NCBI RefSeq assembly: GCF_037042905.1
Contig: NC_087245.1
Span: 19,656,001 to 19,720,000, forward strand
Length of the DNA: 64,000 nt
Source: Lytechinus pictus
Taxonomy: Eukaryota
Direction: 5' to 3'
Made by a program: the position numbers and the translations under genes. The notes beneath the pieces were generated by a model. The model ran no database searches. It had not been told where the DNA came from and worked only from the letters and a program-made list of their open reading frames with translations. This document shows positions 295 through 61,096 of this stretch, piece after piece (position 1 is the stretch's first letter; each line of letters opens with the position of its first letter).

Positions 295-471
295 CGACTG
301 CCTAATCTTTGCAATGACTTCATCTCCCTTCTTGGCAGCTGTGGTGTAGAGTTCTGTGATGTAGCGTTTCTCTTCCTCATGCTGCTGTAGTTTGATCTGA
401 GCTTCTGAAGTATGTGAGGGTGCTGGTTGAATTTGGTATGAGGCAATCGCTTCATCCATGGTCTTGTTGAC
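295..471 (-). CDS. CCDC141: Exon VNKTMDEAI...AKIRQS, 177 nt (last exon visible; the gene continues beyond the window)
   Basis: Acceptor tttcag. The donor TCG|gtcagt is the best candidate but cannot be checked against a next exon. Confidence 0.82.
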
Positions 472-3400
472 CTGAAATACAACAAGAAACAATTCACAAA
501 AATTTAATGAAAATAATGTAATGATTGAGCCATGGGAATTGAATCTTTATATCGTGTTATTTCTCATTTGCTTTTTTTTTCTTCAAATAAATATATTCAG
601 GAGTTCTCTTTCATATATTGAAATTCTAAATCAATATGACAATGAAATCACTTCATTAAAGTGTAAATCTGTAAAACAGTCATTTGAAAGCTGTTGACAA
701 CTTTTTATACCTCATCAAAATTCTTGAGGCAACATTACAACAATCAAAATCACCTCAAGTGGCTGTAGGTAAATTGTTAAATGCTATAGCCATTGGCAAT
801 TTTATTTCCCTATTGACTTAGAAGTATGAGTCTATGCTCTACAAAGTCAAGACTGCCTGGTAGACACACTCTCCAACTCTGCAAGTTGATTTATTACAGT
901 ACTGCAGGAGAATCTTCATCAAGATGCCATTACTAGGAGTTGTTGGCCCTGCATTGGGAAGTATTTGAAAAGAATGTTGCGATTTCATTACCTTATTGAC
1001 TTTTTTGTAGAAGTCAATGCTCAATGTCAGGACTATCTGGTATTCCCCAACCCTGTTCATGAAGCGATGATGAGCTGATGTTAGCCTCTCAACGACCTGT
1101 TCCTTCTCTCCTCCTGTATCTCCCTTAGCTCCAAGCATCTCAGCAGTCTTCAATCTCATCTGGATCTCGGTTGTTACTCTCTGTCAAATACAAAGATCAC
1201 AAACATTAAATTAAAATTTTATTATACATTCATATGTAGAGGCTTTTAATAATTCTGTATCATAATTATTATCATATTCAGGGTTGATATACATAAGACA
1301 GTTCTAATACAACTGCCAATCACATGTAGCTTTGTGCAGCATCAATTTTCATCTTGAAAACTTACTATGAATCATTGAAACTTCAGATTTTAGATTCATA
1401 AGTTTTCAACTTATTACACTGTGATATTGGCATCATAAAGATTTATGAATATGGGCCTAGGTATATACATAAATAAACATTATAGAAAGTTTCCATAACA
1501 TTTCATCAAAATATCTATGACTGCATAGTGCAATTTAATAAACAATCATTGGATATGCTTTAGCACCATACTGTATTTTACAGGGTAAAAGTACAGCTCT
1601 TCTGATAATATTTTTCACTCATTTGAAAACATGTGATGGTATTTTTGGAAATCCCTTTTCAGCTCTTAATTTAACTTTTATTGATAGCATTCAGGATTAT
1701 GCCCTCTGTGTATACCTAGAATCAACTTTCCATGTTTTATTATGACTACTGGGGGTACCTCTAAAACATAATGACTAAAATACTAGTGCTGCCGTGGCAC
1801 TCACCGTTACAGTCTCCTGGAATGAATCTATCTTCTTCTGTTTGACATCAGCCAAGGATTGAGCATCAGAAGTCAATCGTGGGAACACATTACCTTCCAT
1901 GTTGATTACAAACTCAATTGTCTGAAAAGTAATACACAGAGGTGGTATTTCATAAAACATTACATGTGACTAAAAATTGTACCTAAGTGTATACAACGCA
2001 TCACTACATTGGTCGTATTATCATTTGGTCATACTCATCATTAAGATAACAAGTTCATATTGGTGCCTAAACATAAATTCAAGACATACTGCAATCAGAT
2101 ATAAAACATGACCAAAATAGGAATAGAATGAGATGCACGTCTTTATTTATATGAAGATTACAAAAACAACAATATATGTGTATGTAAAAATCATTTAGAG
2201 AAATCACCAATAGAGCAACAAATATTACCAATAATTATAGTTCACTAGTGTGTGGTAAACTGTTACCAAATAAAATTATCTCCACTATTAAATAAATAGG
2301 GTATGATACAGATACACAAACTCTAAAACTGTTAGTAGTGGAATCAAAATGTCAGTGAGGAATAGGCTTATGTCAAATTATTCCATTTACCTTTCTTGCA
2401 TCCCTGACAAAGTGTTCCCACTGAGATTTGAATGTCTCCTCTGCAGAGTACTTCTGATGGAGAGAATCGTAGAGGTCATCCAGGTAGATCTTCCTCTCTC
2501 CAAAGGACTTGATGGTCAACTCCACATAATGGACAGAAGTCTTGGTAACCAGCTCTGTATCATTGACAAGCTGGCGGGCAGAAAAAGGGGTGATGGAGAA
2601 AGATATTGAAATATTTTGGTGTGCAAATTGAGTACTTTCTATTGATTACTGAATCCCTGTAGAAATGGAGTAACTTTTAACGGTGTAACACGTTAATATA
2701 CGCGTTTTCACTAACAGTTTAAAAAAAAGTTATTAAACAAAACTTACAATGGGAATAATATAAAGCAGAATCAGTTCCATTGTTTTTTTTTGTTGCTCTT
2801 TCAAGCCGTGAAAATTTGAGATCATTACAATCTTTCACATGACATTTAAAAAAATGACAAATCATTGAGATGCGGCTCCGACTGTCAACAAGGTGTCTAA
2901 GTGGGCTTTAATAGATTACTTTATGAAGTTCATTCTTGAAGGTATGACCAGTGTTGTCTAGTTGGATGTTGATCTCCACCATCTGATTCCATTTCTCATG
3001 GATGTGTTGCATTGTAGTCTTATTCATCCGCTTCACATCCCTCATCTCTTCAGACTTTAACATCGTCTCCATGTTCTCCATAGCATTGCCAAGCTAGTGA
3101 GCAATACAGATAAAATGGGTTATCAATAACACAACATAATTCTGCACTATTTATTTTTAAATATGATCCTTTCCATGTCAGGATTTGGGGGTAATAACAT
3201 TAAACCACAATCCAGTATGTATTTTTTTTTAAATGTACATCTCAAAAGTATTTTAATTTTTCCTTAAATGTACATTTCCAAGCTGCATAAAGTCAAAAGA
3301 AAGAAAATTAAGTAAACATAATATAAAATAACACACATAAACAATGAACTAACATGTTACCTTAAAGTATAAAAGTAGATACATACCTGTTTGGTTACTT

Positions 3401-6400
3401 TGTGAAATTTGATGAAGATGTGAGCAGCTCTGATTCTGTTCTCCACCGTGACGGTTACCCTTGTCCAGTGTTGCTTTAGCTTGTTAGTTTGCTCTGGAGT
3501 AAACCTGTTCTTGGAACCAAGTTTGGTGGCAATGGCCATCACATTGTCCACTTGAGTTGATTTCTCCTGTAATATAGTCAGGAAAATCTTGTTAAATTTA
3601 TAAAAGTAAAAAAGATAACCATAAATCTAAACAGACCTTAAAAAAAATACTTTTGTTTATTTCATACATATTCCAACATTTGCAATTCAGTCCTCATTTT
3701 TTTTAATTTGCTCTCATAGGTTCAAATCTCCAACTGAAAAATCAATTTTTGACTCAGTCCCACATACCCTAACTTCTGTGAGTAGTTTCTCATGTCCATC
3801 AAGGAAGTCCATGGTGGTTTGCATCTGGTCTCCCATGTCATTGTTAGCCATCAGGAAGGCGTCTCCAACATTCACAAGCCACTTGATCAAGACTGTGTAC
3901 TTCTCTTCAAAGGTAGCCTGCATCTCCGCTTGCTCTCTCAGCTCAGGTCGGGCCTGATTTTGCAGGTCAACACACTTTGCCTAGGGGGTGATAAGCAACA
4001 AATATGTGCACTTTTAAAGACAATCTTGTTGCAAGTTCAGCCTACATGAAGAGGTATAGATCAATTAACCGTATTTCCCTTAAAAAGAGAATATACTAAG
4101 AAATAAGGCAGACCCTCCCCAATCATGCACAGTCATGTAGATGTAGAAAATGAACAATATAGACATAGAAAGTTAGTAGCTTAGAAGTTACAAAACATTT
4201 TCAAATAGTATCCCGTTGAATGACAAAGAAAATAATAGTAGCTTTCCTTTTTTCAAATATGTGATGTGAATTTATCATTTAATAATTACCTGAATTTCAG
4301 CCATATTTTCCTTGACTGTTTCAGCTCCCGGTGTGCTCAGACCGACCTGATTGAGAAGGGCACGGCCTTCACCAAGGACTGGAGTCGAGATCTCTGAGAT
4401 GGCATTGTTGAGTTTGTCTAGTCGGTTGGTCCTGGACCATTCGTCCTTGGGGAGTCTTTCCTGGGATAGCTGGACTCCAAGTCTACTCAGATAGGTCTTG
4501 GCCTTCAAGAGTAAGAAAGAAAACAAATAATAATAATTAGGGTTTAACTGAAATGGCTGAAACCTTTCTTACATACATTCATCAGTGATACCCTTCAATA
4601 TCTGAAAATGATTTATTGAATTAATTGAAAGGTGAGAAACCACTTTTTTTTTCAAATACATAATGCACTTAAAAAATAATCTCATTGTTGTTATCAAAAC
4701 CTTTCGTGGATATTAGAATAAACAAATAATGAATGCACTCTTTTTCACTCATTTAAAAAAAAGCGAATGTCAAATTGGATATCATGGAAAAGGAGTTTAG
4801 AGTCATTTTACCATGTACAGTGTGCAAAAACAAAATTTAAAAAAATATGATAAAATTAGGTGATATCTTTTACACCATCCAGCAGCATCCTAAACTATTT
4901 CAATGAAATAGTGATAACATGGTTGAAAAATACAGAAAATCCTGACCAAAAATAAAACTTACCAGCTCTGCATTGCGATAGAAGTCATGGGCACGTTGCA
5001 GTGTGTTGCGTCTTTCACCCAACCGATGCATAAAATCATCACATAACGTGTCTATGGCTCTGGTCTGGCTACGTAGTCTCTCTGTGCTCTCAGGGTCCGA
5101 ATGTCTCACCTGCTCCGACGTAGCAAGGAGGTTTGCTACGCTGTTTTGAACATCCTAAGCACAAATATGAATATGAATAATAAATATGAATAATAAATAT
5201 AATATAATAAATATAATATAATAAATATATAATAAATACAAATGAATGAATAAAGTTGTATAAAGTATGGTGTCTTAGGATACAGCCAGGATCTAGATAT
5301 ATTACTGGCAAGTGGTTATTAATTTGACCCAACTATCGATGAGATCAATCTAACTGAATGGTATTTGATACGTATGATCTCAAGAATTTGACTTGTAGCC
5401 TTGAGAAAAGCATTTCATCATTTGGTCTAGTACATTAAATATATTAAAATAATAGGAAATGTTACCAATGTTTTGAAATCTATCAATGAAATGCTTCTCT
5501 TCCTTACTCTACAAGTATAATTTGCTTGTGAGCATTAAAGAACAAACCAATCACTTTAGAAATGTACTAATTCATAAGCCCCAAAAATATTCTTATTTTC
5601 GCTTGTATTCTCTTATGTCATCCCATACGAGTAGAGATGAGATAATACGTGATTGTATGTAATCAATCAAAATGAATATCTGACAGAGCTGAGTATATGA
5701 CAAAAAAAATACATGAAGATATTTTCCACTCGTTCAGTGCAAGATATGTCAAACACATGCTATCTTACCCCAGCAGCCACTTCAAATGCATGGTGATGCT
5801 TGAGGAGATCAGAGCATTCATTCTCACTCCGGCCTATATTTCTCTTCTGTAGGTACATTTCACCCTGGGTCCTAAACCAGTTAGATATCTAAGAGAGAAG
5901 CAAAGAGAGGTGAATATAAAGATATCTTGCTGATTGTGGCTCTGATCTACAGGACAAATTTGAAAAACGTAGATTACCACTTCAAGTATAACATTTGGAC
6001 TGTTGATGTATAGAAATTAATTTCACACACAATACCCTATCCAAAATTAAACTGATGGTTGGAAACATTGCAAACTTCTTATTTATATAGGGGAAATAAT
6101 GAATGAAACCATGATTCCAACTTTAATAAAAATATTTAGTAGAAAATACATACATTTATATTTCAAGGATTACCAAATAGCAATAGTCAATGCATTACGT
6201 TGTGTTAAGACTTAGTAATCTCATATCACACCTTAGCACAATAACCATGTGTATTACCGAGTTTTACAAAAACTCATACTTAAGCAGGCATACCAAAATA
6301 GGTGAGATAAAACTTGCTAACTGCATTCTATAGCTCATAAGCATGTATAAGTTTCTCAATACTTTTAAAATTTTCAAACTATCACAATAACCACTACTTG

Positions 6401-9400
6401 TCTCACCTTGGTGACCTCAGTGTCAATGTCACGGAGATGCTGGTACTGATCCAGTTTTCTTGACCTCTCCAGCCAAAGGTCATCAAGGAGACGTCTCTTG
6501 TCCTGGATATCTTCCATAGCTTTCTCCACACCTTGGCAAGAGACCATGGTGGCATGGCGCGAGTCATCACCGGCTTTACTTCCAAGGTCATGGAGGCGGT
6601 CTAAAAGGTCACGACCTTTCGTCATGACCTGCATAGAGCCTTCTAACATGTCTGCATATAGAAGAAATTGAGGAACATACATGTATAAGCATTAGAGATC
6701 AATAATATCTATATAATGTTAATGGTTTATTGTTAATCCTTCATTTCTATTGAGAATCTGGTTTATTAGTGAAAATAAAAAATAAATAAAATTTTAAAAA
6801 GAAAATGGCTTTTTCAATGAATGAAGCATAAAAAAAGTTGATGTTCAAGATCTGATGGAGCCTATGCTGGAATAAAAACTTAAAATTAGAAACTATGAGA
6901 CTTTTTACTCCTTTAAAAATACTCCTTTAGAAATAGTCTGTTTACTTCTGACATGGATTTAAAGCATCGTCATCTACTACGAACCCTGTATAATTCAACC
7001 AAATCAATTCATATGAACCTTCAGAAGTGTTTCCACAGATATTCTTGTACTCCCAACTTATTTGTAGATCTATTATTAGCATACCTTTCTTGATCTGTCT
7101 TGTTCTCTGTTGCTGTCTCTCTACATCTCTGGGATCTGATGGTAGTGACATGGTCCGGCATTCTCTGATCCCATCAGCAAGATTATCATTGTACTGGGAA
7201 TAAGAATAAGATATAAATAAGACATGGAAGTGATGAAAAACTATGTATCGAAAATAGTAGCTTTAAAGTTTGCACTCATCATGGTGTCACAATACCTATA
7301 TGATGAATGCCTCAAACCAAATATTTTAATGAATGGATGGCATGTTTCTTAATATAATTAATTCATTTATTCATTAATTACATAATTTTTCTATTCATTA
7401 CTTTATTCATACATTTATTTTTGGTTTTGAATATTCAGTGATTAAATATAGCTTCATTTGCAAATTAATTCATGCATCAATTCAATTATTCAAATATTTA
7501 TTTACTCATGTTTAAAATTATTAATCAATTTAAAAATAACAATTTATGTGTTCACACAGTAATCTACATATATTTATCCACCTATTAAATTACTCTTAAT
7601 ATTTTCTGCAATATTCCCTCACAACCTGCAAAAGCTATATTTATCAATTACCATCTGCAGAAGTGTGTACTTTACCACTGCAATATATGAAATCTTTATT
7701 ACTCAAATAGAATATGTTTATTTAATCATGTCTTCCAATCCTTCAAAACATAACAAGAACTTGTTTAAAGCCTGGCTCATACCTTTGTGTTTTGGGCTGC
7801 GTATTGCCGCGTTAACCGAAACAAGTAGAATGCCTCTGGCGTTCTCACCTGCATCAAGCGATTCAATATAGCAGCAGTGCTGACTTTGAAAACTACTATA
7901 ACTTGCACAAGATGTTCAGTGATACTTGGTTACTCTTATGTACACGTTTTATGAACTAGACCAATACACTTACAGAGATATGATGGTAATTCAACAAATA
8001 CCCCCAACATGGCCAAGGTTCATTGACCTTACATGACCTTTGACCTTGAACATGTGACCTAAAACTCGCACAGGATGTTCAGTGATACTTGATTACTCTT
8101 ATGTCCAAGTTTCATGAGTCAGATCCATAAACTTTCAAAGTTATGATGGTAATTCAACAGATACCCCCATTATGGCCAAAGTTCATTGACCTTTGACCTT
8201 GGTCATGTGACCTGAAATGTGCACAGGATTTTCAGTAATACTTGCTTACTATCATGTCCAAGTTTCATGAATCAGATCCATAAACTTTCAAAGTTATGAT
8301 GGTAATTCAACATATACCCCCAATTCGGCTAAAGTTCATTGACCCGAAATGACCTTTGACCTTGGTCATGTGACGTGAAACTCGTGCAGGATGTTTAGTG
8401 ATACTTGATTAACCTTATGTCCAAGTTTCATGAACTAGGTCCATATATTTTCTAAGTAATGATGACATTTCAAAAACTTAACCTTAGGTTAAGATTTTGA
8501 TGTTGATTCCCCCAACATGGTCCAAGTTCATTGACCCTAAATGACCTTTGACCTTGGTCATGTGACATGAAACTCAGGCAGGATGTTCAGTAATACTTGA
8601 TTAACCTTATGGCCAAGTTTCATGAACTAGGTCCATATACTTTTTAAGTTATGTTGTCAATTCAAAAACTTAACCTTCGGTTAAGATTTGGTGTTGATGC
8701 CGCTGCCGCCGTCGGAAAAGCGGCGCCTATAGTCTCACTCTGCTATGCAGGTGAGACAAAAATGAATACACAGCCCAATGCAGCATGCTATGCAGCAAAA
8801 TATTCAGATGCAATCACACTTTTGCCCAACAGCTCGTTGGAGCTCGCACAGAGTTACACGCAGTAAAGTGAGGTGATGCAAGCTACAGCAAGGTATTTTT
8901 AGGTATATGGAGCACTAACACTGCATTAATGCATGCGTATGCTGCTCGCTGTTGCTCGTTCTTGCCCATCCTTACTTGCTTTTGTTTGTTTGTTGCCACT
9001 CGTCTTCGCTCGTATGAATTTTCATTGCATTCCGTTGCGGATGTCAGAAAAAAATTCAAATTGCTGAGCTAGAACGCAAGGCCTCTGCGTTAGTCTACAT
9101 AATGATCTCGTATTAGCTTGTTCATTTCGTTGTGTTGCATTTGACTGCATTTGTCTGCATTGAGGCATTCTGCAGCTGAACGCAAGCCCAAAACACAGAG
9201 ACGTACATGTAAGTCAGGCTTGAGGGAGAAATTTTGACCAACCTGTTTGGCACCCCGGTAGAAATCTACAGCCTGATCTAGCAGCTTCTGTCTTGTTTCC
9301 ATCTGTCTGGTAAGGTCCTTCCAGGCTTGTCCAAGGCTCTTGGCCATAGCTGCATAAACATCTCCATAGAACTGTTGTGTGGAGACTTGGTTGTCAGCCT

Positions 9401-12400
9401 GGGTTAGGAGACTACCAATCTGGTCTTGTTTGGCCTGCAATAAGTAGAATACACATTCAATGTATAGGATATGTATTAAAGTTATTGTTGTAATCAATGT
9501 ATGTATTCAAGCCCAAAACGGGCTGCCATGAAAATATAATCAAGAAAAGAAACATAAATCTTATTTGTATCTCTCTGGTGCCACACAAAAATACTGATAT
9601 TGCAGCTCTTGAATAAAATATCCTAACATCTATTTTCCTGGCAAATCAATTTTAACTTTAATAAAATTCAATTATACATATAGTACTACTCTACAGAAAT
9701 ATCTTTTATAAATGGTGGCAGCGGTGGGATTTTCAATACAAGAAACCTCAATTTTGCATGATACTTCTAAGTCCTGCATTTTGTTTTCCATCAATAAAGT
9801 CCAGTCTAAAAAGTAAAGTGTCCACTTTGCTATTAAACGCGTGACATAGGCCTGAGCTCAACTTTGAATAAATGGGTACTTAGAAGAATGGAGATCAACT
9901 TGTGTATGAAATTTACCATTATGTGCAACATCTGACAAGGCATATTCCAGGGAATGAAAGCTTTCCAAAGTCAAATGAGGGGTGAAATTGTATTCAATGA
10001 CTGGGATAATGAGTTGGAACTCATCAACCTCAAGGATATGTGCACTACATAATTGATTATTATGCCATGCAATCATTAAAACTTTAAGAACAAAAGAAAA
10101 TTACCCCCCCCAAAAAAAAATTAAATTAAACATATACAATGAAGACAAATAATTATACATGACTGTGATCACCTAATTATTTTTATTTTATTTTCCTTTT
10201 TACATTTATTCATCACACTTTAATACTGCTACCTAAGCTAATTAGGGATAAGATATTGTCTGCTCGTGTATGCTTTGCTATGATGAGCAACAGTTATATT
10301 TTTCCATCCTCCCACACATAAATATCCTAGTTTTCTGGCTTGTTAGCTGTCTGTGATGGATCAGAATCCTAGGCTAATATTCTCCCTGACACATTCCAGA
10401 AAGTTTTGGTCTGAAACCCTGGAACATGGAATGTCCCATTACTGATGAGGTCACTTCTCAATTTAGACTCCCAATCCAGGCTTTTGGATGCTCATCAAAA
10501 TGTCATCTTCTTGAACTCTAAAGGGATTTTCAGTAATCGCCTTTTCAAATCATTACAGTTTTCACATTCAATTACTATTTATCCTCTAAGAGTATAGAGA
10601 TGAGACATGAGCCTGTTTCATGTTCTAGTATCATAATATAATTACGACCTGGGGCCAGTTTCATAAAGGACTTGCAACTGTTGTAACTTTGCCATTATGG
10701 CAACTACCATGGTAACCTTGATTCTGATTGGCTGCTGAGCCCTGTTACCACGGTAGTTGCCATTATGTCAAAGTTACAACGGTTGCAAGTCTTTTATGAA
10801 ACGGGGCCCCAGAAATCACATCAAATTATTTCTTTTAAAAAATACCGACATTTTGAAAAGTAAAAATGTGGTCCCCTAGGATAAATTCTAATAATAGCTA
10901 GTAACAGATATACATGACAGAACCTGGTGCCAATTTTTTGTTTATTTATCCACTTATCTCTTCATTATTCTATTCATATTTTGAAAAGCTATCCTGATAT
11001 AAAAATAGGAGTTTTAATTTAGGCATTTGCAGAAGAACAATCAGTTGAGGAAGTGAAATGTTGTTTCATCTGAATTCATAAAACCAGACATCATTAATAT
11101 TAAGTATATAATCTACCAATATATGCATATGAAATGTCATATATTTTCATTGTGGGCATGATATAAAAATATTCATCTAACTCTCAATTTTTTTTCATAT
11201 CATTTTCCTAAACAATACATGTAAGACTAAACCTAACTATCACTTTGTTTTACAATAAAGATTTTTTTTCTTTTTCAAAGCAAATTCATTTAACACACAA
11301 GACATCATAATTGAACTATGCTAGAAACTTTGAATTTGACCTACATTTAGCCCTAATTTCTCCAAATAACATTTTCCAAATAATTTTCTTTCAATCAATT
11401 CAATGATTATATAATCTATTTTTGAAACAACATAAATTTTCAAATTTCATCAAACAGATTTTTTTAATAGCAAATACATCTTTTCTTAACCTCAATGCCA
11501 TGTCAACACCGTACTGCCTCCAAAAATACCATGCACACACATTGCATAGATTCCTGGCCCATCACTTAATGTATGACATGGGCCAGTTGTTATCTTTGGA
11601 GCACTCGTTTAAAGGAGATAGTCTAAGTCTACATCCATGGAAGTTGTTGTGTTCAATACTGAATTGCACAGTCTAATACAATGTTTGTCAAATATTTCAG
11701 GGTTTTTTTTTTTATTATCTGGGAATTCATATTTTGTTTAAAGGAATGCCTTAACATGCTCCATGCAAAAAAAGGGCATGGAAAGATTTAGGCCTTTTTT
11801 TTCATACAGAATTACTTATTTTTCGTATCACTAAAAATCATTTTTATTTAAATGATAATTCATTATTTGTAGGTAAAACATTAAATAATTTATTGTACTT
11901 AATAGAAACACATATTTTTCATTCAATATATTTAACATCGTTCACAAATATATAAAGAAATGCAAGAATGGGAATGTTCTTAAAACTTTTTATAAAATAA
12001 CTCATTGCTTATCTTGGTTAATATTCTAGAATTACATTTATCTCTGATTATTTTCTTAAAGTCAATCCTGATCCTGAATGAATTTTAAAATTGTAGGATC
12101 ACTGCACAGACCATTCTGCAATATGTGATCTAAGCATATTTTATTCTAATAAGTATATTCAATTAAAGAAAATGACTAAGCATGCCACATATTGCCAAAA
12201 TTTGGGCTTCATACACAAAAGCCTACCATATAAAATGTACATCTTTCCAAAAAATGTGCAGTTATTTCTTCTTGTTTAATGACAAGCAGACCTGTCACTG
12301 AACAGCTTACAGAGAACTCTCTATTTGTATTCATTTTGACAAGTGTCCTTTTCCCTGTTCATATTTCAAAGAAAATATAAACTACCCTAGTTGTCACCTA

Positions 12401-15400
12401 AGATGCATGACATCTGACCTCTAAATCTAGATAGATTTACAAGAGAAAACTGTTTTTGCTTGAACTTTGACTATCAAGGGCTGTATAGATAATGCACCAT
12501 TTGAGGTCTAATGCAATTTGATTAGATGCTGTCCTATATATTCCCAAGCATAAATACCAGTTGTGGTAATGATCTCAAAATGAGTTCAATCAGAATCCAA
12601 TGAAATTACCACCAAAGTGTTTGTATGTATAAAAAAAAAAAAATATGTGCCAAATGGCTCTGAAAGAAAATGCGTAATTGCTGAGAAATGAACAAAATAA
12701 GCACGAATTCCATCAAATGTCGGGTATTTTTTTAAACGATATTAATACACTGTCCAACATATGGTTTTCTGTGTTGGCGATCATCAGAATTATCCATTTT
12801 GAGCTGAGATTTCATGATTTTACAAAGATAAGTTTACATTAATGTACCAGATCTAGGTGTATGATAGTATTTTGACAATTAATCTTGATTTAAAAGATTT
12901 TGTCATGAAATATTTGCTTGCTGCAACCACTGTCTTTTACCTTGAACATCAAGAATATCGTTAGATATCAAACATTTTCTTATGAATCACCTTGAGGTAG
13001 TTTTAATGCAATTAATGCACCAAATCTCTATAATTCACTTTTACCACTGCAGTTGAAATTTTAATGCAACATTTGACATAGATATGACAGCTTTTTAACT
13101 AGGTTTCAATTATTCATTGACTATAAAGAGGGCAGGAAGATATTCAAATTAAGACCTTTTTGGACTCACTGGTTTGATCTTCATCTTTAAAGTTCAACAG
13201 GCTCAATTTACTCTAAATAGGCTGACAAAACTCAATGAACTTAGCAGACTGTGATGGCAGATGTAGGAATCAACTTTGGCCTAATGTTAAACTGTTCTCC
13301 AGTATTCAATTAGAATTGGGACTGTTTAGGATAACACATTTACCATGTGACCAAATCATTTCAAGGTCCCCACACTGAGGTAAATATTTATCTTTAGAAT
13401 AGGTGCTCAGCATTCAGAACCACAAGATAATAAAATATACTTGATAGTTGCTTGACTAGCAATCAGTCTATCAGACTTGAAATTTGAAATCTGAGAATTG
13501 AATTTCAAATTCATCTTAATATAAACCTATTTTAGTACTAGTATTAGATACTGTGACATGCTATGATACAACTTACAATAGTAATGAGGTAGCAAAAGAA
13601 AGTAAAAATGTATAAACAATTATAAAAGTACAAATATCACAATATATATCCATGCTAACTATATCAGTTTGCCTTGCATTGCAGCTATAGCCTAACAACA
13701 GGAGGTAAAAAACAGATTTTCTTTCTTTTAAGCTCTAACATTTTAAAGTTGGATTTGGATTTTCACAAACCTTTCACTAATATGTTGTTATTTCCTATGT
13801 TTCATAACAACTGTACACCTGGGAGATCTTTCCCTTTAATAATCATGGTATAAAGAATTTATACATAATACTGTAGATGAACTTAGCAAATGTGTATAAT
13901 ATTTGCCTTTTATCTTTGAAAAGGGTAGACATGATCAAATGTTTATTGCATTTTTTTAATATGAAAACGAAATATTCATTTCAGTGCTCATCCTTAGCCC
14001 TGTTTTTGTCTTAACTTTAGTAAATTTTGTTTTATGTGATTGTTGGTCACAGTAATTCAACCTACTAATATAAATATACATTTGTAAAATGAAATCACAG
14101 TTACTTCGGCTTCTTATCAAAACTGACAATGTAAGAAGATATGCTGAAGCCCAAGGCAGATTTTTGAGTGGGATACAAATCACTACATAATAGAAGGATG
14201 TTGGTGTTTGACTTGTACACTAAATATTTCAACAAGACTTGATATGTGTTATCTTTGATTTAAAGAAAATGTCAAGTTTTGGTGGCAAAATTGATATATT
14301 AGGATTAAACTTAATAACTTCTTATTGACCAACTTGTATTCATAAAAACCTGCACAGAAATTATGGATCTCCCCTTTTCTCTTAGTGTAAATGTGAATAT
14401 TTTATATTTAAACTTCATTTCTTGTACATGCACACTATCAGTATCCATTTCAGTGAAATTATCCTGATCATGAAATACTGTGCTCAAAATAATACCATCA
14501 TGAGTACAATATCTTTATCTCATTAGTGATACAATCATCACCAACATATTTTGAAAATAAATGTTGGACAAATTCTAGGTAATGGTTGAGTTTTTATGCA
14601 AAAAAATAATGTTAAAAACAAAAACAAAATGTTAATTCAGGCACTACATCATGCCAAAAAATGAGATAGCTCACATAATAGTTTGTGAAGTGTTAAAGAT
14701 TTGTAAAGAAGAGATGTTAACAAACTTACCACAAGATTTTTAATGACTTCGTCATGTTGTGTTTTGAGATTCTGGGCTTCCTCCAAGTTTGTCCCAATCT
14801 CTGTCATTCTTGGTATCATGTCTTCTACTCTTACTTGGATCCATTCCGCCGACTAAGTGAGGAGAAAAACAAAATGTGAAGGTTAATCACTCTTCTATTT
14901 GCAGTAATTTTGGTACATTTTAATTCAATTTTTATTGTTATATCAAAAGTGACTTGGCACCCACAATTTAACATCTCTATTTTCATTGTTTTGGAGGGGT
15001 GATCCAGCATTTAATTTCAATTTCATGAAATGGCAAAAAATGATCAGTGGATTGAAAAAAGGATAAAATCATTAGCAAACAATTTCATTGAAAATTGTGA
15101 CTTATGTTTTATTATATTGAACATATATTTTAACACAATTAATAAGCCAATCTTTATCATATGAAGCATCATCATTTCATACACAATTTCATAACCAAAA
15201 TCATGTTTTTCATCATCATTATCACCATCCTCCATACATTACCTCAACCATTCATAATCATATGAAATAATGTTTCATTTCAGCACATAATCATATTTTT
15301 TAAAGATAATATTAAATTCACATCAGACCAAAAACCAAAACAATATGCAAGTAAATTGTTGTTGTTTCCCGACACCCCTGTAAAAATCATTTATAATGAA

Positions 15401-26440: not shown

Positions 26441-27030
26441 TTTCGGTTTCTTTTTTTCGCTTCGTTTCGTTTAAAAAATATTTCTACAAACTATTTTCTA
26501 CGAACTTTTGTCTCTTTTTTTGAGGAACCGGTAGAACTAATTGTAACTTGTGTTTGGTCCCTTCGTTGATCTCTCGACACAAAAATAAAACAAATAAACA
26601 AACATTGAAATAAGTTGCTTCAGATTTTTTTCCTTCAAACCTTCATGGGAAGGTTTACCGCGACGCCATAGGAGTTTCTATGGTGTTTGATTGGAGTCGC
26701 GAGCGCACAACGGGGCTGGTAATGACGTGCACGCTTTTAGTGCCCCGCGCCAGCCAAACGCACCGACTGACTTGAGATCTCGACTCCCTACTGAGAGGCA
26801 GAGAGGAGAGACTCAGAGTACCAGCACGATGGTCTTTCCTTCCCTCAATCCTCTCTTCTTTCTATCCTCTCCTCTGTCTATCTCTTTCCTTTGATCCCCT
26901 GTGGGAGTGCACGGGGTACTGGGAGAGCGAGAACATCTATATTAGGAGAGGCACTGCTTTCCTGCTAGCCCATTGGTAGAGCACTGAAGTGTTCGGTTAT
27001 CCTCCACTTGTATTAGTCTCAATGCGCAGA
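26441..27030 (-). promoter_or_regulatory. Candidate 5' UTR and internal promoter for the CCDC141-type first exon
   Basis: Locally GC- and CpG-rich tract (about 26660-26830) directly upstream of an ATG exon that lacks a splice acceptor. No repeat termini seen. Confidence 0.55.
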
Positions 27031-32290: not shown

Positions 32291-32787
32291 ATCATGCAAA
32301 GAAAATTGCAAGATGGTCATATAAGTCAAATAAAAATCAATAATTCTTGATTGGAAATCATTCAAACCCCTTCTTCATTATGAATGGTAAGATCTCCAAA
32401 CAGCATGCCATTTCAAGACAAATTCCATCTATATTGTCATATTGCATTCTTTTCAAATTTGCTGAGAAAGGTTCTCATCCAAAATGACTTCTAGGCATAT
32501 GAAAAGAAATAATGTAAATAGTGCACTGTTTGAACAATGCATACTTTTATTATTAAGACATTAGGGGGTACATTACTCCAGAAATGAGGGAAGTATGTAC
32601 TCTCATCACAGAATGACCACCAAATTATCAGAATTGCCTCCGATTTACTTCTTACTTGTCATTTTTACTTTTTTTCAAAGGGGTTAAAAGTATTCAATCC
32701 TTTCCTTTCTTCTTTTTTAATGAAAAATAATAAGTGTATAATATAGTATGGAAGTATTTCTCTCACTGACAGATTTCTGAAACTTAC

Positions 32788-32979
32788 CTCCTTTACTTTG
32801 TCCTCAAAATCCTTCATTCGCCTCAATGCCTCATCTTCTGGTCTGATGCCATAGCGATTAGGTGATGGAGGAGGCATCCTATTGAGACTTGAACGGCTTC
32901 CATTCAAGCTGCCGTGACTTCCAGTCAATCTTCCATTCATCCTACCATTGAGACTTGGTGGAGGAGCTGACATCACAGA
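32788..32979 (-). CDS. Linker/bridge exon (SVMSAPPPSLNGRMNG...EDEALRRMKDFEDKVKE), 192 nt
   Basis: Acceptor cttccag, consensus donor GAG|gtaagt, open frame, phase 0 to 0. Confidence 0.8.
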
Positions 32980-41626: not shown

Positions 41627-41660
<34 letters not shown>

Positions 41661-44600: not shown

Positions 44601-47600
44601 AAATTTAAACTTTATTCTAAGGTTCAAAACATAGGGTTATTGTGGGCCAAAGACTCTAATGATTTCTCAAACTTAGGAATCAATAGCAGCTATAAACAAA
44701 GATTGTAAGAAGCTTGAAGGGGGTGTAATATTATTTTTATTCTTGCCTTCAAACAATCATTGCTTTCCTGAAAGAAGTAGGGCTACATGTACATGAATTT
44801 ATATTGACAATCAAGAACCATATCATACTTAGGTTGAGTATATGAATAAATATAGTTAATTAATTGTATTTAAAAAATCATCTCATATATCTTTCAAGTG
44901 ACACTTATTTCTAATATCCCCAAAAATACAACAAAAAAATTTAAATAACTTAAATTTAACTTGAAGTTAAACTTGAATAAGAAGTTAAACATATTTGAAT
45001 GAACAGCATTTCTTAATTTTCAAGTCCTTGTGACTAGTTAAAACATTAAATCAAAACTATGTAGTTGCAAATAACCACCAAGTTTGCTGACATCTAGATC
45101 CATGTACCTCATAGTACTGTATGAGTTCCATTACAAGAATACACATGCCTGTATACAACCAAGGCTAGTCGTAACTCAATGTCAACATACACTTTGACAC
45201 TTCCTAACAATAAATCACGGTCGTAACTGAGCAGCCAAGATCATTGCTTTTCAGGTGGAATGTTAACAATCACATGTAATATGAGGAAAGAGAAATCAAA
45301 AGATTGCCTTCCACTTTTAACTTCCACAATCACTCTACAGCATGCAATACTTCTCAAATTACCCCCCTCTCAAAAATGGTTCTCTTATTCATATTTCACT
45401 TAATCTCTGTAACTTGTTCTGCACATAATTTTTATCATGAAATTCTTTTTGGAATAAGATCAACCTATAAAGATAACTTATATGTTATCTATAAAGCAAT
45501 GGGGCATATTTTACTCCTTTCAATAAAATTTGAAGCATATTAAGGGTACATGTACATGTATCACTCCGAATGAAACACTTTTTCTCAAATAATAGGCTTC
45601 ATATAATCTCAATGTATCTGTCTTTTTTATTCTTTCAAAATTAATTTGTTCTTTTCTTAAAATTGAAAGATATGAAACATCCTCTTCTTGAAACAATAAA
45701 CTAAGATGATGATGATTTCATCATTTGTCATCATTTTGAATACATCTGCAAGACAATTTGGACAATAATTTTTTTTAAAGAGAAAAATATTTGTAAACAC
45801 AAGATCTGTTTTGGATTCCAGAAACTAGTTTATATAGGCCTACATGTAAGTTCCATTTTATTTCTTTCATACAATCCCTCTATAATTCATCCCAAAAAAT
45901 TTGTTGAAACACGTACATTGTTCAATGCCAGCAATTTGCTGAATTACTTGTCTGATATGCTGTAAATGTATAGGCCCTGTACAACATGTATAATTAATTT
46001 ACTTGGTAAATGCATTCTATCCCAGACATACCCTTTAATTCTTTGTAGTATCAGCACCTTGAGATACATTTAATTACCTAATTGCTAAATTAAGAATGAT
46101 CTTATTATGTTCTCCCTTGGGGGTCAGACAATGTACTCATCATCACAAAGGAATTTGGTTTCTGCCCCCTTTGGTGTCGGAAGGCTCTGACAGTGTAATG
46201 TAATGGATATTGAGTCAAATAAAAATATAAGAAGGTCGTCATGTGCATGGGTGTGATGATAAACTGGATCTGTCGCATGTTTACATGCTCAGCCCAATGT
46301 AACACCCACACAGTCCGGGTAGGTACAGTAAACTTGAAAATATAAACCTTCCAATTATTATATTCCTCTTCATCCTGTAACCTGGCCTGGATTCACTTGC
46401 AGTGACTTTCCTAGACTGATCCACTGAACTGGTCCAGGCGATATGCTTTCATTTCCAATATATAACCCACTGTGGCACTAACATAATTTGGAATAGCATT
46501 TTTCTACATTTGCCACACTTGACTCGGGTGAAGTAATTGGGTACCTGACAAGAACTTAACCCTCGTAATACAAAATCACCTTGTTGACAACTCCACCAAA
46601 GCTGAGGTAACAATCGTAGAAAGCCAAGAGTGTCATATCTGACAAAAAAGTGGTGCTATACTGTAGAAGAACCCACTTGTTATACAATTAAAAATAGAAT
46701 TCTAAATAGACATCATTTGGAGTAAGACAAGGGTCTCACTAACAAACATAAGATGGAACAAGAATTCATGCACATTACTCACCTGAAGAACTTTCATAAC
46801 CAATTTAATTGGTTGCCATGCCGACCCTCTCATATCAACCAGTAGACTGAAGCCATGTGCCTTGCTCTCAGTACTAAAGATCAAACAAACAAAGTTTTGT
46901 TATTAATATTTTTTAATTAAACTCACTTTCCAAAAAAGGAGGAATTCATGTAGGTAACGAAAGGATATACGTCAGATTCTCTCCATGGAACTTAAGAAGT
47001 AAAAATTGATATACACAGGGTGCACCAATATCAACTATCCATATTGTCATGTACATGTGCAATTTTTGTTAGCCAAGAGGGCACTTTGCGTAATAAAAGG
47101 AGATCCAAGGTAATCATATGATTTATTGTCTCTATTTCTGTGTTTTCTTTTATGTTGTTGATGGAGCGATTGTGATACAGTCATATCAGGAAGGGCATTT
47201 TCTTAAGCTTCCCCCCCCCCCCCTGATATGACATAATATGGGGGCTTGTCTGAAATATAACTTTACAAGCCATGTTAACTTACTGTAGTTTGAAAAAAAG
47301 ATTAATACAAGAATAACTGTACATAATCTGCAATGGCTTTGAAAAAAAAATACCTAGCTGCATGTTTGCTAGCTTAACCATTTTTAAAGGAGAATGAAAC
47401 CCTTGAAACCAGCTGAATCCATATCAAAGAGAAAAATCAAAGAAACATATTGTTGAAAGTTTGAGGAAGATTGAATGAATAATAAGAAAGTTATGAGCAT
47501 TCGAATATTGAGATCACTAGTGCCATGTAGATCCTCCCAACGGCAATGCGACCAAGATCTGTGATATCACACACGTACAACTCCCTCATTACTTTAGTAC

Positions 47601-50600: not shown

Positions 50601-53600
50601 TTATAAATACAAAATATTCAAAACTGGCAAATTTAGTACTTACTACTGTACATAAGTACATCAACTGGAACGATACTTATTGAAAAAAATAACGTAAAAC
50701 AAAAATCCAGTTTCATGCAGGACTAATGTAGTCCAAATTTTCTACAATGTCCGAGTTTAATGAAATATTAATTTTGAATTCCTAACTTCACAGAAAAACG
50801 AAAAGCGCAGATTGGCTCTCACATCATACATGTATACCTTTATTGAAGGCTTCCATGTCAGAAGTCCAACCTTGACTCTGTTTCCTACAAATAAAATCCC
50901 AGTGGCTAAACGAAGCGATTCAATAAATTCATAGGAACAACTGCTTAACAAATATAGGACAATACAGATCATATTTACAAAAGTAACCACACATCAAATC
51001 CTTCAAAATGGCCTGTCTGTTCCTTTTGGTAAATTTCAATACTTAACAGGCTAATAATAAATGGATAGAAATATATTTTTTTTATATATGCCCATCACTT
51101 GCATGTAAGTGGTTATGGTGGAAAAAACACCAAAGGTTAGAGCTTAAAAGAACTTATACCCCTTTCATAAACCCAATAAAACCTATCCTCCAATTAGCTG
51201 CCTAAGAGTAATGTGGATAATTCAATAAAAATTGCATTCACAAACTCCAAAAATTATCCACATTATTTTAACGAGCGCCCGTCCTGAAAAAGGCGGATAA
51301 TCATCATGACAACTGGACACGCCCCCTCCGATGCAGTTGTGTTGGAAAAGGGTGACCTTGTGACCGCACCATGGCAATTATCCGCATTATTTGGAAATAC
51401 GTTCATAAAGTCAAAATCTTGTCCCGATGCCGCTATTATGCGGATAATAGCAGCATCAGAATAATGCGGATAACTCTTGTCCTCCTCTGATTTTACGACC
51501 AAATTATGCTGCTATTAGCCGCATAATTGGGTTTTATTGGGTTTATGAAAGGGGTATAAATGCACATCATTCTGTATGTAATAAAAAAAATGTTGGAACG
51601 ATTTCTGATCAAAAACTTTGATCTGAGAAAATTTCTTTCTTTTACCTTTGCTTGCAGTTCATGAATTATGGTACAATAAACTGATCAGATTATGAATTAT
51701 ACAGAAGTGCACATTGATCCATCAGATAAAATTCATCTATATGAAATAAAGTTCATTCCAAAACTGTGTTATCATTTTAAGATATAGAGTTCCTCTTGTT
51801 TACAGTAAAATCATATTTCATATCTCAATCAGCAATTCAGAAGCTGACATACAATTTTACAAACTTGCCACTCCACCGGTAAAGGGTTTTTGTTTTCTAT
51901 CTTATTTTGTGACCTACATTAAAGAATGATACAATCCTGAAAGGTCACAGGATTTTTTTCAGGTCAAGTTTTTGTGTTGAATGACCTCACTGTCTGGGCA
52001 GAAAGTAGCAATTCTAAATCCAACCATAATGGGCATGAAAGCTTTTCATCTTCTGGATTTACGGGCTGGTTTAACTTCTTTTGAGGAGAAAAATGGGGGT
52101 CGATCTTTTTATTCAGCTTTTGTATAAAACAAGACATAGCCTTTAATAGGCAGTGGTGAACTTCAACCTCTATGCTTTAGTTTTTAAAACATATTAGTTT
52201 TAGGAGATTTAGTAGGTGCTGCAGTTTATTCATCAGAGTGCATACACAATATTTTTTTAGTTTGAGGAGGAACATTCAAACATTACTTCAGTTATTACCA
52301 ATAATCGAAAATGAGAAATTCATCAATGAAAATTCAAACTTTATACATAAAGTGAATTAATGATAATGAACGAAAGAATAAACCAGAGACAAATAATTCA
52401 ATCAATCAATGCATGGATGAAAGGAAGGAGCAATAGTTGAATGAATGAAAGAATCAAGACAGAAAGAAAGATGAATAAGAAATCAATAATCTGCATAAAA
52501 TTAAAGCCATTTTGTGTAATTAACTGATCTCTTATTATCTTTGGCTTTAAAAAATGAATAAATAAATACTCCACACAAAATTGAAACAATCTTCAATTTT
52601 CATTTTCTCCTGACAGTAGACGATAAGTGAATCAGTTACCTTGGTAACGAAGCAAGATAGGTGATGGTGGTAGCGATGTCTTCAATGGAAACTTCAGAGG
52701 GTTGTGAAGGGAATGAGATGATTGGTCCACCACGCCTGTCCTTTCCACCTGAAAATACATAAACACAAAAGATAAAATATGACATTAATCTAAAAGTGGT
52801 AATTCTTTGATTGAAAATCCCACAATGGAGAGAAGTTACACATTCATGTCTGCGTAAAATGAAAGTAGCAATCAATCACTTGCAATTGCTAAATCAAGAT
52901 CATTGTTGCACATGAATGATGTTAACATCACTCACACATAACCAATCAGAATTGTTGAGAAACTTTGAATTTCTAATTGATCATAAATATTGTTAGAAAG
53001 CCCAGACGTTCATAGTGTTGTGTTTTTAAGAAGAAAAGGATTACTGATAACAATTTGTACAAAACTAAAAATAAAGCACATATTTTTATCTATTAATCAG
53101 AATTTATTCAATCTCATCTGTCTGCTTCTATGAAAATATATCAGAAAAACCTGGAACAACCTTTTCATTTAATCAGGGGGTGCTACAACCATGTAAAGAT
53201 TTCAGATTCAAGTAAATAACCAGTTACCAAGGCAATTGATGCAACAATTATATAGCGCTTATTACAATATTTCTAAGCATTGCTTACTATTACCCTGGCT
53301 TTAGCAGGGGTAACCTGATCAGACGCTTGAGCATTCAATGAATTTCCTTCTACTGGGTACCCATTTACTACACCTGGGTGGAGAGTGGCAAATGTCAATA
53401 AACGCCCTGCTAAAGGATGCAAGTGCTGTGGTGGGGCTCGAACCCTGGACTTTGTGGTTCAAGATCCGGAGACTTATCCACTGAGCCAAAAAACTCTAAA
53501 CAATGTACCTGTAATCAGAAAGTGGAGTGGGATAGTCCTGGAGATGTACATATAGTCCTACATCCGACTGATGAAATTTCCACACACAAAAATTTATGTA

Positions 53601-59600: not shown

Positions 59601-61096
59601 TGAAAAGCAGCCCCCGAATATTTAAAAAAAAAAAAAATCATTTCCTGTAGGGGATGCCTTTTTGATGGGCCCCAGTGCATTTCTCATTGGACTTGGAGAT
59701 TTATTGTGCTTTTTTATTTTTTGTTTTCATTGGAGCTTTAATACAAATGTGGGCCCCATGGAAAATAGACTTGTCCTAAAAATATCAGAACTTTTATTTA
59801 GCGTACATGTACCATCCCTGTATTTCTTGGATGGGAAACCATTATTCATGTATGTAATATTAAACACCATTCTCACTACCTTCCTAAAACTAGTTTACGG
59901 GAAACTAGTTTAACGTGTAATGAGAATGGTTGAAGCGATCTTCCTAACCAGTTCACAAAACCACCTCGCGATGAAGTTTCTAAGTTCGCTTTGCCTCGTC
60001 AAACTGGTTTTAACGTAAGTGAGGACACAATCGTTCTTCGGAAAGCAATCTTCGCACATTTTGAGCGTGCTACTCCACACGACAGGTGTAGAATGCCTAT
60101 GCTGCGGTTTTGAATTTCGCATGAAACGTGTCACCCAACTGAGAGCGTTTCCATAGCAACAAGATCGCTTTATGTAAAGTGATTTTGAAAACCACTTTCG
60201 TGTGATCAAATGGGAACGCTAGCAAAGCGATCTTCCAAACTGGTTTCCTGGACCGGTTTCCAGTAAACCAGTTTTAGAAAGCGTAATGAGAATGGTGTCC
60301 TTAATTCACAGCAAAATTGGACCATGAATGAAATTGAGCAAAAATAATTACCATATCAATTCCCTTTTGTCAAGTGCAACAACTTTCAGCTTTCAACTTA
60401 AGACAAGTATGTAGGGAAACACCTTATGAAGTACACACATACACTTGAACATTAGACCTGTTTTGATCTGAGCAATGTCACACCTGAGTAAATATACAAA
60501 TGATGTATGATCTCTTGGAGCAATCATAGCAGTGATGGCAGAAGATGATGATGAGAATGCCATTGGTGAGCATTCTAATTAAACTTCTCTCTACAAACCC
60601 AGAAACCCTACACTAATTATAAACATTTACATTTTCATCCATTATTTTCAATTGATTTTTTTTTCAAAAATACTTTAAATGCATCTTAATCAATAATACA
60701 TTTAGAATTGATTTTGACAACCTACATCTATGGTCATGTTAATGCACTAAGGTATAATTTTAGAGGTTTTGGTAATAAATACAAAAAAAAGTATACAGCA
60801 AGCCTAAGATGTTCTGAAACAATTGACTACATTTCGGAAATGTTGAAAGAGTGAACTTTTGAAATTACTATGGTTCATGTACAGTGTATATGTGGCACCC
60901 AAAACAAACACGTTACAAAGTCGACTGCACCATACACTTTTTTTATTGTTTGTGACAAACATCTACCCACATACTGTATCTGCCTGTCTGATGCACTTTT
61001 CCTAACAATCCTTTTTTGAGTCACGAGCAAGTCTTACTTACCTGACAAATATGCTAGCCTTGACTTCAGCAAGTCTTTGATCTCTGCTGCTTGCAT
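32788..61096 (-). CDS. SESTD1: SESTD1-like region (SEC14/CRAL-TRIO domain plus spectrin repeats): 16 coding exons, 840 codons, no stop codon in the spliced chain
   Basis: Hand-spliced GT-AG exons in consistent phase. Motifs LAYLSGGKDRRGG, QLTEDFGGALDYHHQEWL, DWIVGPGEKLL, AFGKDIT, VRKLKLQQLLQLKSCERDAEQAIAWL, TYDYG and LLDRLALPVVSPD match my recollection of human SESTD1 along its whole length. Confidence 0.9.
33756..34035 (-). CDS. SESTD1: Exon with the SESTD1-like C-terminal helix (AADHLAQKMAELENKRRE) followed by a Ser/Pro/Val-rich linker, 280 nt
   Basis: Acceptor ttacag, phase 2. The donor CAG|gttggt (phase 0) is weaker and was chosen for phase compatibility. Confidence 0.8.
34480..34673 (-). 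CDS. SESTD1: Exon LISQMDKLC...LLDRLALPVVSPD-R, 194 nt
   Basis: Acceptor acccag, donor CAG|gtaatc, phase 0 to 2. Confidence 0.9.
35080..35271 (-). CDS. SESTD1: Spectrin repeat exon (ETYDYGLNLL...FQRNAEK), 192 nt
   Basis: Acceptor cttcag, donor AAG|gtagta. Confidence 0.92.
36058..36180 (-). CDS. SESTD1: Spectrin repeat exon (AIAWLLELLD...EHSKFETTAR), 123 nt
   Basis: Acceptor catcag, donor AGG|gtaaga. Confidence 0.92.
36961..37041. repeat. Two-copy tandem duplication, period about 41 bp
   Basis: caccttggg...atagacttcc...tctattcata occurs twice. Confidence 0.75.
37268..37497 (-). CDS. SESTD1: Exon NRAIREGKSIL...SCERDAEQ, 230 nt
   Basis: Acceptor ccacag, donor CAG|gtatgg, phase 1 to 0. Strong SESTD1-like motifs. 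Confidence 0.92.
37877..37991 (-). CDS. SESTD1: Exon AFSKLADLLELCTGEVE...DNFDNS, 115 nt
   Basis: Acceptor atacag, donor gtaagc, open frame, phase 0 to 1. Confidence 0.85.
38499..38663. mobile_element. Palindromic MITE of about 165 bp, copy 2
   Basis: ccaggggcccgtttcata... / ...tatgaaacgggcccctgg; same family as 10649-10812. Confidence 0.85.
38879..39070 (-). CDS. SESTD1: Spectrin repeat exon (DIYGNYAEL...RFHRLSQE), 192 nt
   Basis: Acceptor accag, donor GAA|gtaagt, phase 0 to 0. Confidence 0.92.
39501..39790 (+). mobile_element. tRNA-derived SINE
   Basis: Pol III box A (tggtctagtgg) and box B (ggttcgattcc), followed by a core ccacattgtgctgcactcaacccaagtgaggt shared with other copies. Confidence 0.8.
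40256..40378 (-). CDS. SESTD1: Spectrin repeat exon (VIDWIVGPGEKLL...EHEKLELKCT), 123 nt
   Basis: Acceptor tttcag, donor gtaagt. Contains the spectrin helix A Trp and the IG...H motif. Confidence 0.92.
40430..40710. repeat. Purine-rich (GAA/GAC/GGA) low-complexity tract
   Basis: Strong purine bias on the + strand. Confidence 0.7.
40898..41121 (-). CDS. SESTD1: Exon GHSLSRRVE...GDMESGIKK, 224 nt
   Basis: Acceptor ccacag, donor AAG|gtaaaa, phase 1 to 0. Helical coding composition. Confidence 0.88.
41290..41700. repeat. Compound (CAT)n/(CAC)n microsatellite
   Basis: Pure triplet blocks at 41500-41700, degenerate further left. Confidence 0.95.
41715..41886 (-). CDS. SESTD1: Exon DFEKFLKDSS...PSSVLQL-G, 172 nt
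   Basis: Acceptor ttatag, donor TTG|gtgagt, phase 0 to 1. Confidence 0.88.
43033..43149 (-). CDS. SESTD1: End of SEC14 domain (TIFLSSPSKLTKYLDTSQLTEDFGGALDYHHQEWLQNRL), 117 nt
   Basis: Acceptor cacag, donor CTG|gtaagt. QLTEDFGG motif. Confidence 0.93.
43490..43700 (+). mobile_element. Degraded tRNA-derived SINE, same family as 39501
   Basis: tggtttagtgg, ggttcaaaacc and the shared core attgtgctgcactcaacacaggtgaggt. Confidence 0.65.
43831..43941 (-). CDS. SESTD1: SEC14 domain exon (ETLAGSISVIYILK...KDKSQSFE), 111 nt
   Basis: Acceptor atacag, donor GAG|gtaaat, open frame, phase 0 to 0. Fills the expected gap in the domain. Confidence 0.85.
46783..46873 (-). CDS. SESTD1: SEC14 domain exon (TESKAHGFSLLVDMRGSAWQPIKLVMKVLQ), 91 nt
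   Basis: Acceptor tttag, donor CAG|gtgagt, phase 2 to 0. GFxxxVDxR motif. Confidence 0.92.
47384..47974. mobile_element. TTAA-flanked long-TIR non-autonomous transposon (Kolobok-like)
   Basis: TTAA|AGGAGAATGAAAC...GTTTCATTCTCCT|TTAA, with inverted arms of about 200 bp. Confidence 0.85.
48180..48273. repeat. Two-copy tandem duplication, period 50 bp
   Basis: acagtgtgcattaaa-cattgtggtaagctggta-gggtgactt occurs twice. Confidence 0.9.
51155..51558. mobile_element. MITE of about 400 bp with TA flanks (Tc1/mariner-type)
   Basis: Perfect TIR tacccctttcataaacccaataaaacc / ggttttattgggtttatgaaaggggta, with TA on both sides. Confidence 0.88.
52640..52748 (-). CDS. SESTD1: SEC14 domain exon (GGKDRRGGPIISFP...TYLASLP), 109 nt
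   Basis: Acceptor tttcag, donor AG|gtaact, phase 1 to 2. Carries the GGKDRRG motif typical of SEC14 domains in the SESTD1/Trio group. Confidence 0.92.
53250..53488 (-). mobile_element. tRNA-derived SINE, reverse orientation
   Basis: On the minus strand: tggctcagtgg (box A), ggttcgagccc (box B) and an aatgggtaccc core. Confidence 0.75.
56103..56622. mobile_element. MITE of about 520 bp with internal short repeats
   Basis: TIR taccctttttacaca / tgtgtaaaaagggta, and many taaccccg(g/t)actat units in both orientations. Confidence 0.85.
59861..60304. mobile_element. MITE of about 440 bp
   Basis: TIR acaccattctca...ttcctaaaactagtttac / gtaaaccagttttagaaag...tgagaatggtgt. Confidence 0.8.
61042..61096 (-). 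CDS. SESTD1: SESTD1-like first coding exon (MQAAEIKDLLKSRLAYLS-G), 55 nt coding
   Basis: ATG at 61096, acceptor tttcag 8 nt upstream, donor CAG|gtaagt, phase 1. Not in the ORF track because it is too short. Confidence 0.85.

Follow-up and report, generated by a model that had tools for sequence, protein, structure and literature searches.

The 64,000-nucleotide stretch of the Lytechinus pictus genome analysed here, hereafter the window (positions 19,656,001 to 19,720,000 of NC_087245.1, assembly GCF_037042905.1), carries on its minus strand a series of SESTD1-like exons followed by a series of CCDC141-like exons, which lie in a common reading frame and are probably joined by splicing in this species. 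In silico splicing of the 30 exons, from 61096 to 295 (Table 1), yields 4956 nt encoding 1652 residues with no stop codon, and GT-AG borders are present in 29 of 29 introns. A sequence-only reading of the window had proposed a 16-exon SESTD1-like chain (61096-61042 to 32979-32788) ending at a phase-0 donor, GAG/GTAAGT at 32788 (slashes mark splice borders), as well as a joined product of at least 1648 residues, and both the coordinates and the length are borne out by our analysis. Its statement that the SESTD1-like chain never reaches a stop holds for the 16 exons when spliced, but not when donors are read through: beyond 32788 a stop follows after 40 residues, with a polyadenylation signal after it (Table 1), while beyond the weak donor of exon 15 at 33756 (CAG/GTTGGT) a stop follows after five residues (33738-33755), with no poly(A) hexamer within 800 nt. 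The phase-0 intron that separates the two halves is the longest of the 29, and its donor received the top score among the five GTAAGT sites listed in a scan of this intron. Exon 17, which the earlier reading had named as the next exon, does possess an AG acceptor and a phase-0 start. The same intron also holds an exon beginning with an ATG at 26440.

At its 5′ end the chain is probably incomplete. Exon 1 has an acceptor, the frame stays open upstream of the ATG at 61096, and both Diadema models described below carry 54 more N-terminal residues than the window chain. This ATG may not be the true start, and a further coding exon likely lies beyond the window, past 64000; a tblastn search of the window with the first 56 residues of two homologues (P0019 and P0190) returned a best E value of only 0.46. 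No Ig exon was found in the window.

The chain aligns colinearly, across the junction between its halves, with residues 55-1757 of a 3961-residue protein predicted in Diadema antillarum (XP_071495752.1, P0019), and as 1286 of the 1652 residues (78%) are identical in this local alignment, it is not a chance assembly of exons. XP_071495752.1 and its Diadema setosum counterpart XP_072180970.1 are orthologues, 78-81% identical to the window product, colinear over the 30 exons and joined at the same junction, and they differ from it by a longer linker, the additional N-terminal residues and the lack of an exon of the 26440 type. A Pfam scan of P0019 assigned PF13716 (SEC14) to residues 79-208 and 14 I-set (Ig) stretches to the region past the spectrin repeats, with no match to a kinase or RhoGEF domain. 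The SEC14 region of the window matches Sp-SESTD1 (PMC12198301, supplementary file 2) at about 72 of 76 residues when compared by eye. DUF7799 and Spectrin_7 repeats were detected in the CCDC141-like half (PF25075 in exon 20 and a weak PF25101 match in exon 27), the CCDC141 cluster of the protein atlas has the same families, and this cluster was within the top three atlas matches (0.95) for the second-half counterpart in homologue P0039.

TRIO and kalirin also carry SEC14 and spectrin repeats in one chain, and the locus might be a TRIO/kalirin paralogue in which the fusion of SEC14 with nine spectrin repeats is nothing unusual; some fused homologues have indeed been automatically named ‘kalirin-like’ or ‘triple functional domain protein-like’. 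This explanation is extremely improbable. In a FastTree analysis (30 rows picked from 64 that qualified, with no cnidarian row and a single vertebrate SESTD1) the window grouped with echinoderm and hemichordate SESTD1-like rows at 99% local support, outside a separate TRIO/kalirin group at 100%. The first half is 81% identical to P0019 as compared to about 27-30% for TRIO, the Ig domains of P0019 and its lack of a RhoGEF match contrast with TRIO and kalirin, in which RhoGEF-PH-SH3 follows the repeats, and Anneissia possesses a separate kalirin-like gene.

The junction between the two halves reads KVKE/SAEW in the window and RVKE/SAEW in XP_071495752.1, is the same in P0190, and fell in one alignment column in 13 of the 13 fused proteins displayed, with E/S-x-W as the commonest form. 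Pfam spectrin repeats span it in three of these homologues, starting at residue 915 with the junction after 924 in P0023, at 871 with the junction after 880 in P0039, and at 990 with the junction after 995 in P0021. As the repeats start 6-10 residues before the junction, exon 16 encodes the opening turns of a repeat that extends into exon 17; by these domain predictions the junction is within a spectrin repeat, in agreement with the earlier description of an uninterrupted helix at this point.

The same arrangement is found in other bilaterians. A query with a Glandiceps protein against proteins of 1632-4660 aa returned 21 entries, P0019 being the best of them. Fifteen, from 14 species, contain both halves in order, the other six being a mosquito isoform without most of the second half, two TRIO proteins and three spectrins. 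Further fused models are present in Anneissia, in Diadema setosum (‘titin-like’, 6593 aa) and in two additional amphioxus records. The fused models cover six phyla, namely echinoderms, cephalochordates, annelids, nemerteans, molluscs and arthropods, across which the position and phase of the donor as well as the residue at the junction are conserved, in RefSeq and submitter annotations alike; RefSeq models with the same join include those of two Diadema species, two crinoids and amphioxus. A comparison of gene models, as the sequence-only reading had suggested, found the fusion in Diadema, crinoids and amphioxus, whereas the hemichordate models recovered among proteins of 141-2000 aa are SESTD1-only. 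In insects the order of the window recurs in CG15822-zormin-sls of Drosophila and in the ‘titin’ isoform sets of ants and wasps, and in models from ants, wasps, midges and mosquitoes the halves meet at this same column, although identity is about 20-34% and the linker is much longer; according to PMC12198301, CG15822 is a separate gene in the fly. In the Topomyia titin isoform X6 (P0032) the sequence resumes after the linker, at about residue 942, some 590 residues into the CCDC141-like half, and mosquitoes may thus join the same donor to a later acceptor.

The ATG of the exon at 26440-26342 has an A at -3, and an in-frame stop lies 30 nt upstream of it; both AG sites between this stop and the ATG score much lower (-10 and -14) than any real acceptor (minimum -0.6), and the exon therefore cannot be an ordinary internal one. 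The N-terminal 107 residues of the wasp protein P0247 (Cotesia), a segment located just before that spectrin exon and sharing its end point at the donor, found their best window match at 26419-26333 (E 4e-8, with 17 of 25 residues identical in the core), and a segment of P0252 (Clunio) matched the same place (E 4e-4); neither score was reached by any of 10,000 shuffled controls. Upstream, 26401-26800 contains 23 CpG against a window mean of 4.1 per 400 nt and is one of only two among 318 segments with at least 23, a promoter signal that is suggestive only, as the other such segment is in a repeat-like stretch; CCAAT (26694), CACGTC (26729) and GGCGCG (26751) motifs are also present. Judged from sequence, the exon likely provides an internal start for a CCDC141/zormin-type isoform without SEC14, and the CpG-rich stretch 5′ of it is likely the corresponding promoter. 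Human CCDC141 presumably begins with a similar Thr/Ser-rich hydrophobic motif. The single giant gene of the earlier reading can be retained as one in-frame SEC14-spectrin gene, SESTD1-like and then CCDC141-like, but it probably gives rise to more than one product through the internal start exon and donor read-through.

A number of observations weigh against a joined gene with an internal start. Every fused homologue is a predicted gene model, and when proteins of 141-2000 aa were queried with exon 11, 17 SESTD1-like proteins were returned, none with the second half and nine of them hemichordate or mollusc SESTD1-only models of 885-1429 aa. The Logan proteins P0040 and P0195-P0197 (876-888 aa, on contigs of 2.8-3.2 kb) look intronless and end at the read-through, hinting at the presence of such RNA in some animal. 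The SESTD1-only proteins P0047, P0049, P0051, P0057 and P0065 have in common a short C-terminal tail resembling LTKQALTGVF or ITKQTIKGFL, which suggests a genuine terminal exon in some arthropods, and short forms may be dominant in some animals; no counterpart of this tail was noted in the window. With regard to the internal start, CpG peaks are also found near 60 kb and within a repeat-like region (28.6-29.4 kb), three ATGs lie 5′ of 26440, and the exon is not a clean first exon in the insect models, as P0247 has extra residues on both sides and in P0252 it is internal. Among 8000 candidates scored in a search for shorter CCDC141-only proteins five matches were obtained, four single-exon fragments and one spectrin, and none begins with the internal exon.

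These points could be accommodated by two neighbouring genes, the human arrangement, of which the SESTD1-like one would end by read-through past 32788 and the CCDC141-like one start at 26440, with the fused models as predictor joins or rare read-through transcripts. Such an arrangement would fit the stop and AATAAA after 32788, the ATG exon with its CpG-rich upstream stretch, the nine SESTD1-only models and the three bilaterian genes concluded in PMC12198301. We nevertheless regard it as unlikely in view of the donor position, phase and junction residue kept over six phyla in both kinds of annotation, and of the spectrin repeat begun in exon 16 and finished in exon 17. In addition, the read-through tails are short and unlike one another, and in Branchiostoma lanceolatum a fused (P0021) and a short model (P0194) part ways at one and the same residue. 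P0194, the Cotesia proteins P0248 and P0238, P0045 (Toxorhynchites) and P0059 (Ampulex) have Val-Ser at the residue where their fused relatives splice, as expected if a GT(A/G)AGT donor were read through, to judge from the proteins. Seven short/fused pairs were compared, four of which showed ‘VS’, two another ending at the same residue and one a match by eye, and the Glandiceps, Saccoglossus and Biomphalaria models end similarly. The SESTD1-only endings may be annotation breaks or genuine short isoforms. Between 32.7 and 26.5 kb, where a terminal exon with a stop was looked for, ten acceptor-like sites score at least 4.5 and none is favoured; the best three (31039, 30985 and 30964) are part of a 21-nt repeat that recurs at 28846-28877, beside a long inverted repeat, and no homologue match was found at any of the three.

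It might also be argued that the gene is fused but lacks an internal start, the 26440 exon being a silent relic or a chance open reading frame. The exon type is skipped in both Diadema models, its 33 residues have no match in Pfam or the protein atlas, and the search described above recovered no protein that begins with it. A relic would not be expected to retain 17 of 25 residues in common with a wasp segment, together with the same spectrin exon downstream and the same donor position, and this possibility is accordingly given very little weight.

Table 1. Coordinates of the exons and other features of the locus in the window (minus strand).
Feature	Position	Strand	Remarks
Exon 1	61042..61104	-	Acceptor 61104, ATG 61096; SEC14/CRAL-TRIO domain begins
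Exon 2	52640..52748	-	SEC14 domain; 89% identity to P0019
Exon 3	46783..46873	-	SEC14 domain
Exon 4	43831..43941	-	SEC14 domain
Exon 5	43033..43149	-	End of SEC14 domain; PF13716 E 0.009, alone below curated cut-off
Exon 6	41715..41886	-	SESTD1-like helical region
Exon 7	40898..41121	-	Homology to P0019
Exon 8	40256..40378	-	Spectrin repeat
Exon 9	38879..39070	-	Spectrin repeat; 95% identity to P0019
Exon 10	37877..37991	-	Homology to P0019
Exon 11	37268..37509	-	SESTD1-like spectrin repeat; PF24915 E 1e-15
Exon 12	36058..36180	-	Homology to P0019
Exon 13	35080..35271	-	Homology to P0019
Exon 14	34480..34673	-	Homology to P0019
Exon 15	33756..34035	-	SESTD1-like helices end, Ser/Pro-rich linker begins
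Exon 16	32788..32979	-	Ser/Pro/Gly-rich linker and first turns of next spectrin repeat; phase-0 donor GAG/GTAAGT
Candidate read-through ending	32551..32787	-	40 codons, stop ending 32665, AATAAA 32551
Phase-0 intron between SESTD1-like and CCDC141-like halves	14853..32787	-	17,935 nt
CpG-rich promoter-like stretch	26441..27000	-	Likely internal promoter
Likely alternative first exon	26342..26440	-	ATG 26440, 33 codons, donor CAA/GTAAGT, phase 0
Exon 17	14730..14852	-	First shared exon of CCDC141-like half; 82% identity to P0019
Exon 18	9243..9434	-	Spectrin repeat
Exon 19	7085..7193	-	Homology to P0019
Exon 20	6407..6651	-	DUF7799, PF25075 E 1e-8
Exon 21	5769..5888	-	Homology to P0019
Exon 22	4963..5154	-	Homology to P0019
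Exon 23	4290..4502	-	Homology to P0019
Exon 24	3768..3980	-	Homology to P0019
Exon 25	3387..3566	-	Homology to P0019
Exon 26	2920..3093	-	Homology to P0019
Exon 27	2391..2570	-	Weak PF25101 match
Exon 28	1805..1921	-	Homology to P0019
Exon 29	992..1180	-	Homology to P0019
Exon 30	295..471	-	Phase-0 donor; gene runs on beyond left end of window

Repeats occur at several places along the locus. Within the large intron, 30300-30910 is a long, MITE-like inverted repeat with 143-nt arms that are 90% complementary and inner arms of 83 nt, while the CpG-rich stretch 28600-29400 shares a 21-32-nt unit with a short tandem array at 30959-31047, is a source of strong false acceptors and is likely transposon-derived; three or four diverged copies of an 83-98-nt unit are found just inside the intron at 31848-32247. 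The donor of exon 6 is directly followed by a (CAC)n-type trinucleotide array of about 63 copies (41506-41693), and a 54-nt two-copy repeat (42956-43065) overlaps exon 5 at its 3′ end, including the donor, with a degenerate copy in the intron. CpG-rich intronic patches at 59801-60400, 56201-56600, 51201-51600, 19001-19400 and 8801-9200 may be regulatory or repeat-derived. An Rfam scan of 22100-64000 gave no matches.

The idea of a fused gene is not new, and the join is already contained in public gene models. As the sequence-only reading had suspected, the fused ancestor has been described: a connected SESTD1-CCDC141-TTN gene was named ‘connectitin’ by Hanashima et al. (2025; PMC12198301), who find it as a single gene in cnidarians and placozoans, conclude that in bilaterians it gave rise to three, SESTD1, CCDC141 and TTN, and note three kalirin promoters corresponding to the three human genes. 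PMC12198301 and PMC12657953 treat human SESTD1 and CCDC141 as separate genes, and a transcript spanning CCDC141 and TTN is cited in the latter. The locus described here resembles connectitin in its SEC14 domain, near-identical to the Sp-SESTD1 of that paper, in its long run of spectrin repeats and, in Diadema, in the many Ig domains that follow. It differs in being a bilaterian locus with the first join in frame. Connectitin has a C-terminal kinase and, in cnidarians, also RhoGEF/PH/SH3; no kinase or RhoGEF match was obtained for the orthologue P0019. Human SESTD1 and CCDC141 share with the window the domain content of the two halves and are neighbours of TTN, but are separate genes, our comparison with them being confined to the SEC14 row of the PMC12198301 supplement. 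Neither a bilaterian junction nor an internal first exon is described in the available text of PMC12198301, and among titles and abstract openings of the open-access literature no paper other than PMC12198301 and PMC12657953 was found on the fusion, the bilaterian join or the internal exon; the available part of bioRxiv 10.1101/041806 adds nothing on fusion. Amphioxus P0193 (XP_035660906.1), which is labelled Bf-SESTD1 in PMC12198301, reaches about 250 residues into the CCDC141-like half. What is added here is the case for persistence of the fusion across many bilaterians, together with a conserved internal start exon.

We consider it highly probable that the window contains the 5′ portion of a connectitin gene of a sea urchin, the halves of which are likely spliced across the 18-kb intron, and which likely acts as one transcription unit with three outputs. 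From the upstream promoter, splicing of 32788 to 14852 would produce a long form, a fused SEC14-spectrin rod, with titin-type Ig domains expected to follow past the end of the window. A promoter near 26.7 kb would produce a CCDC141/zormin-type form without SEC14, in which the first exon 26440-26342 is spliced to 14852, and read-through of the 32788 donor to the stop and poly(A) signal may produce a SESTD1-only form. SEC14 domains bind lipids, and the long protein, with a spectrin spacer and Ig domains behind its SEC14 domain, could tether membrane to myofibrils or to other cytoskeleton. This role is proposed because of the lipid binding of SEC14 in combination with data on CCDC141 and zormin: according to the available text of PMC12657953, mouse CCDC141's N-terminal spectrin repeats bind nesprin-1, its C-terminus binds titin and the protein is located at costameres, while work cited there places zormin at Z- and M-lines.

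The unsplit ancestral layout proposed by the sequence-only reading is supported by the fused homologues, their common junction and the tree. Its proposal that vertebrates divided the gene rests on the account of the human and fly loci in PMC12198301 and on one fish SESTD1 model (P0044), and the fused bilaterian models, as far as predictions allow, argue against the three-gene conclusion which that paper draws for bilaterians. On balance we favour the view that the intron at the boundary predates the split and has been retained across bilaterians, with a phase-0 donor that is either spliced onwards or read through and is followed by an internal promoter and a short first exon shared by sea urchin and insect. 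The human genes would then be former isoforms, fission would consist of the loss of one splice, and the bilaterian split would have been late and lineage-specific.

These results refine the 2025 model of titin origin, and for the specialist in muscle evolution they may be more useful than surprising, as both the concept and the database models already existed. They predict a membrane-binding SEC14 end on a titin-type protein of invertebrates, and they suggest a testable route to gene fission, via an intron in which a possible terminator as well as an internal start were already present. Should RNA data bear out the join, ‘SESTD1’ and ‘CCDC141-like’ entries in many invertebrate annotations would represent parts or isoforms of a single gene, and the three-gene state of vertebrates would be derived.

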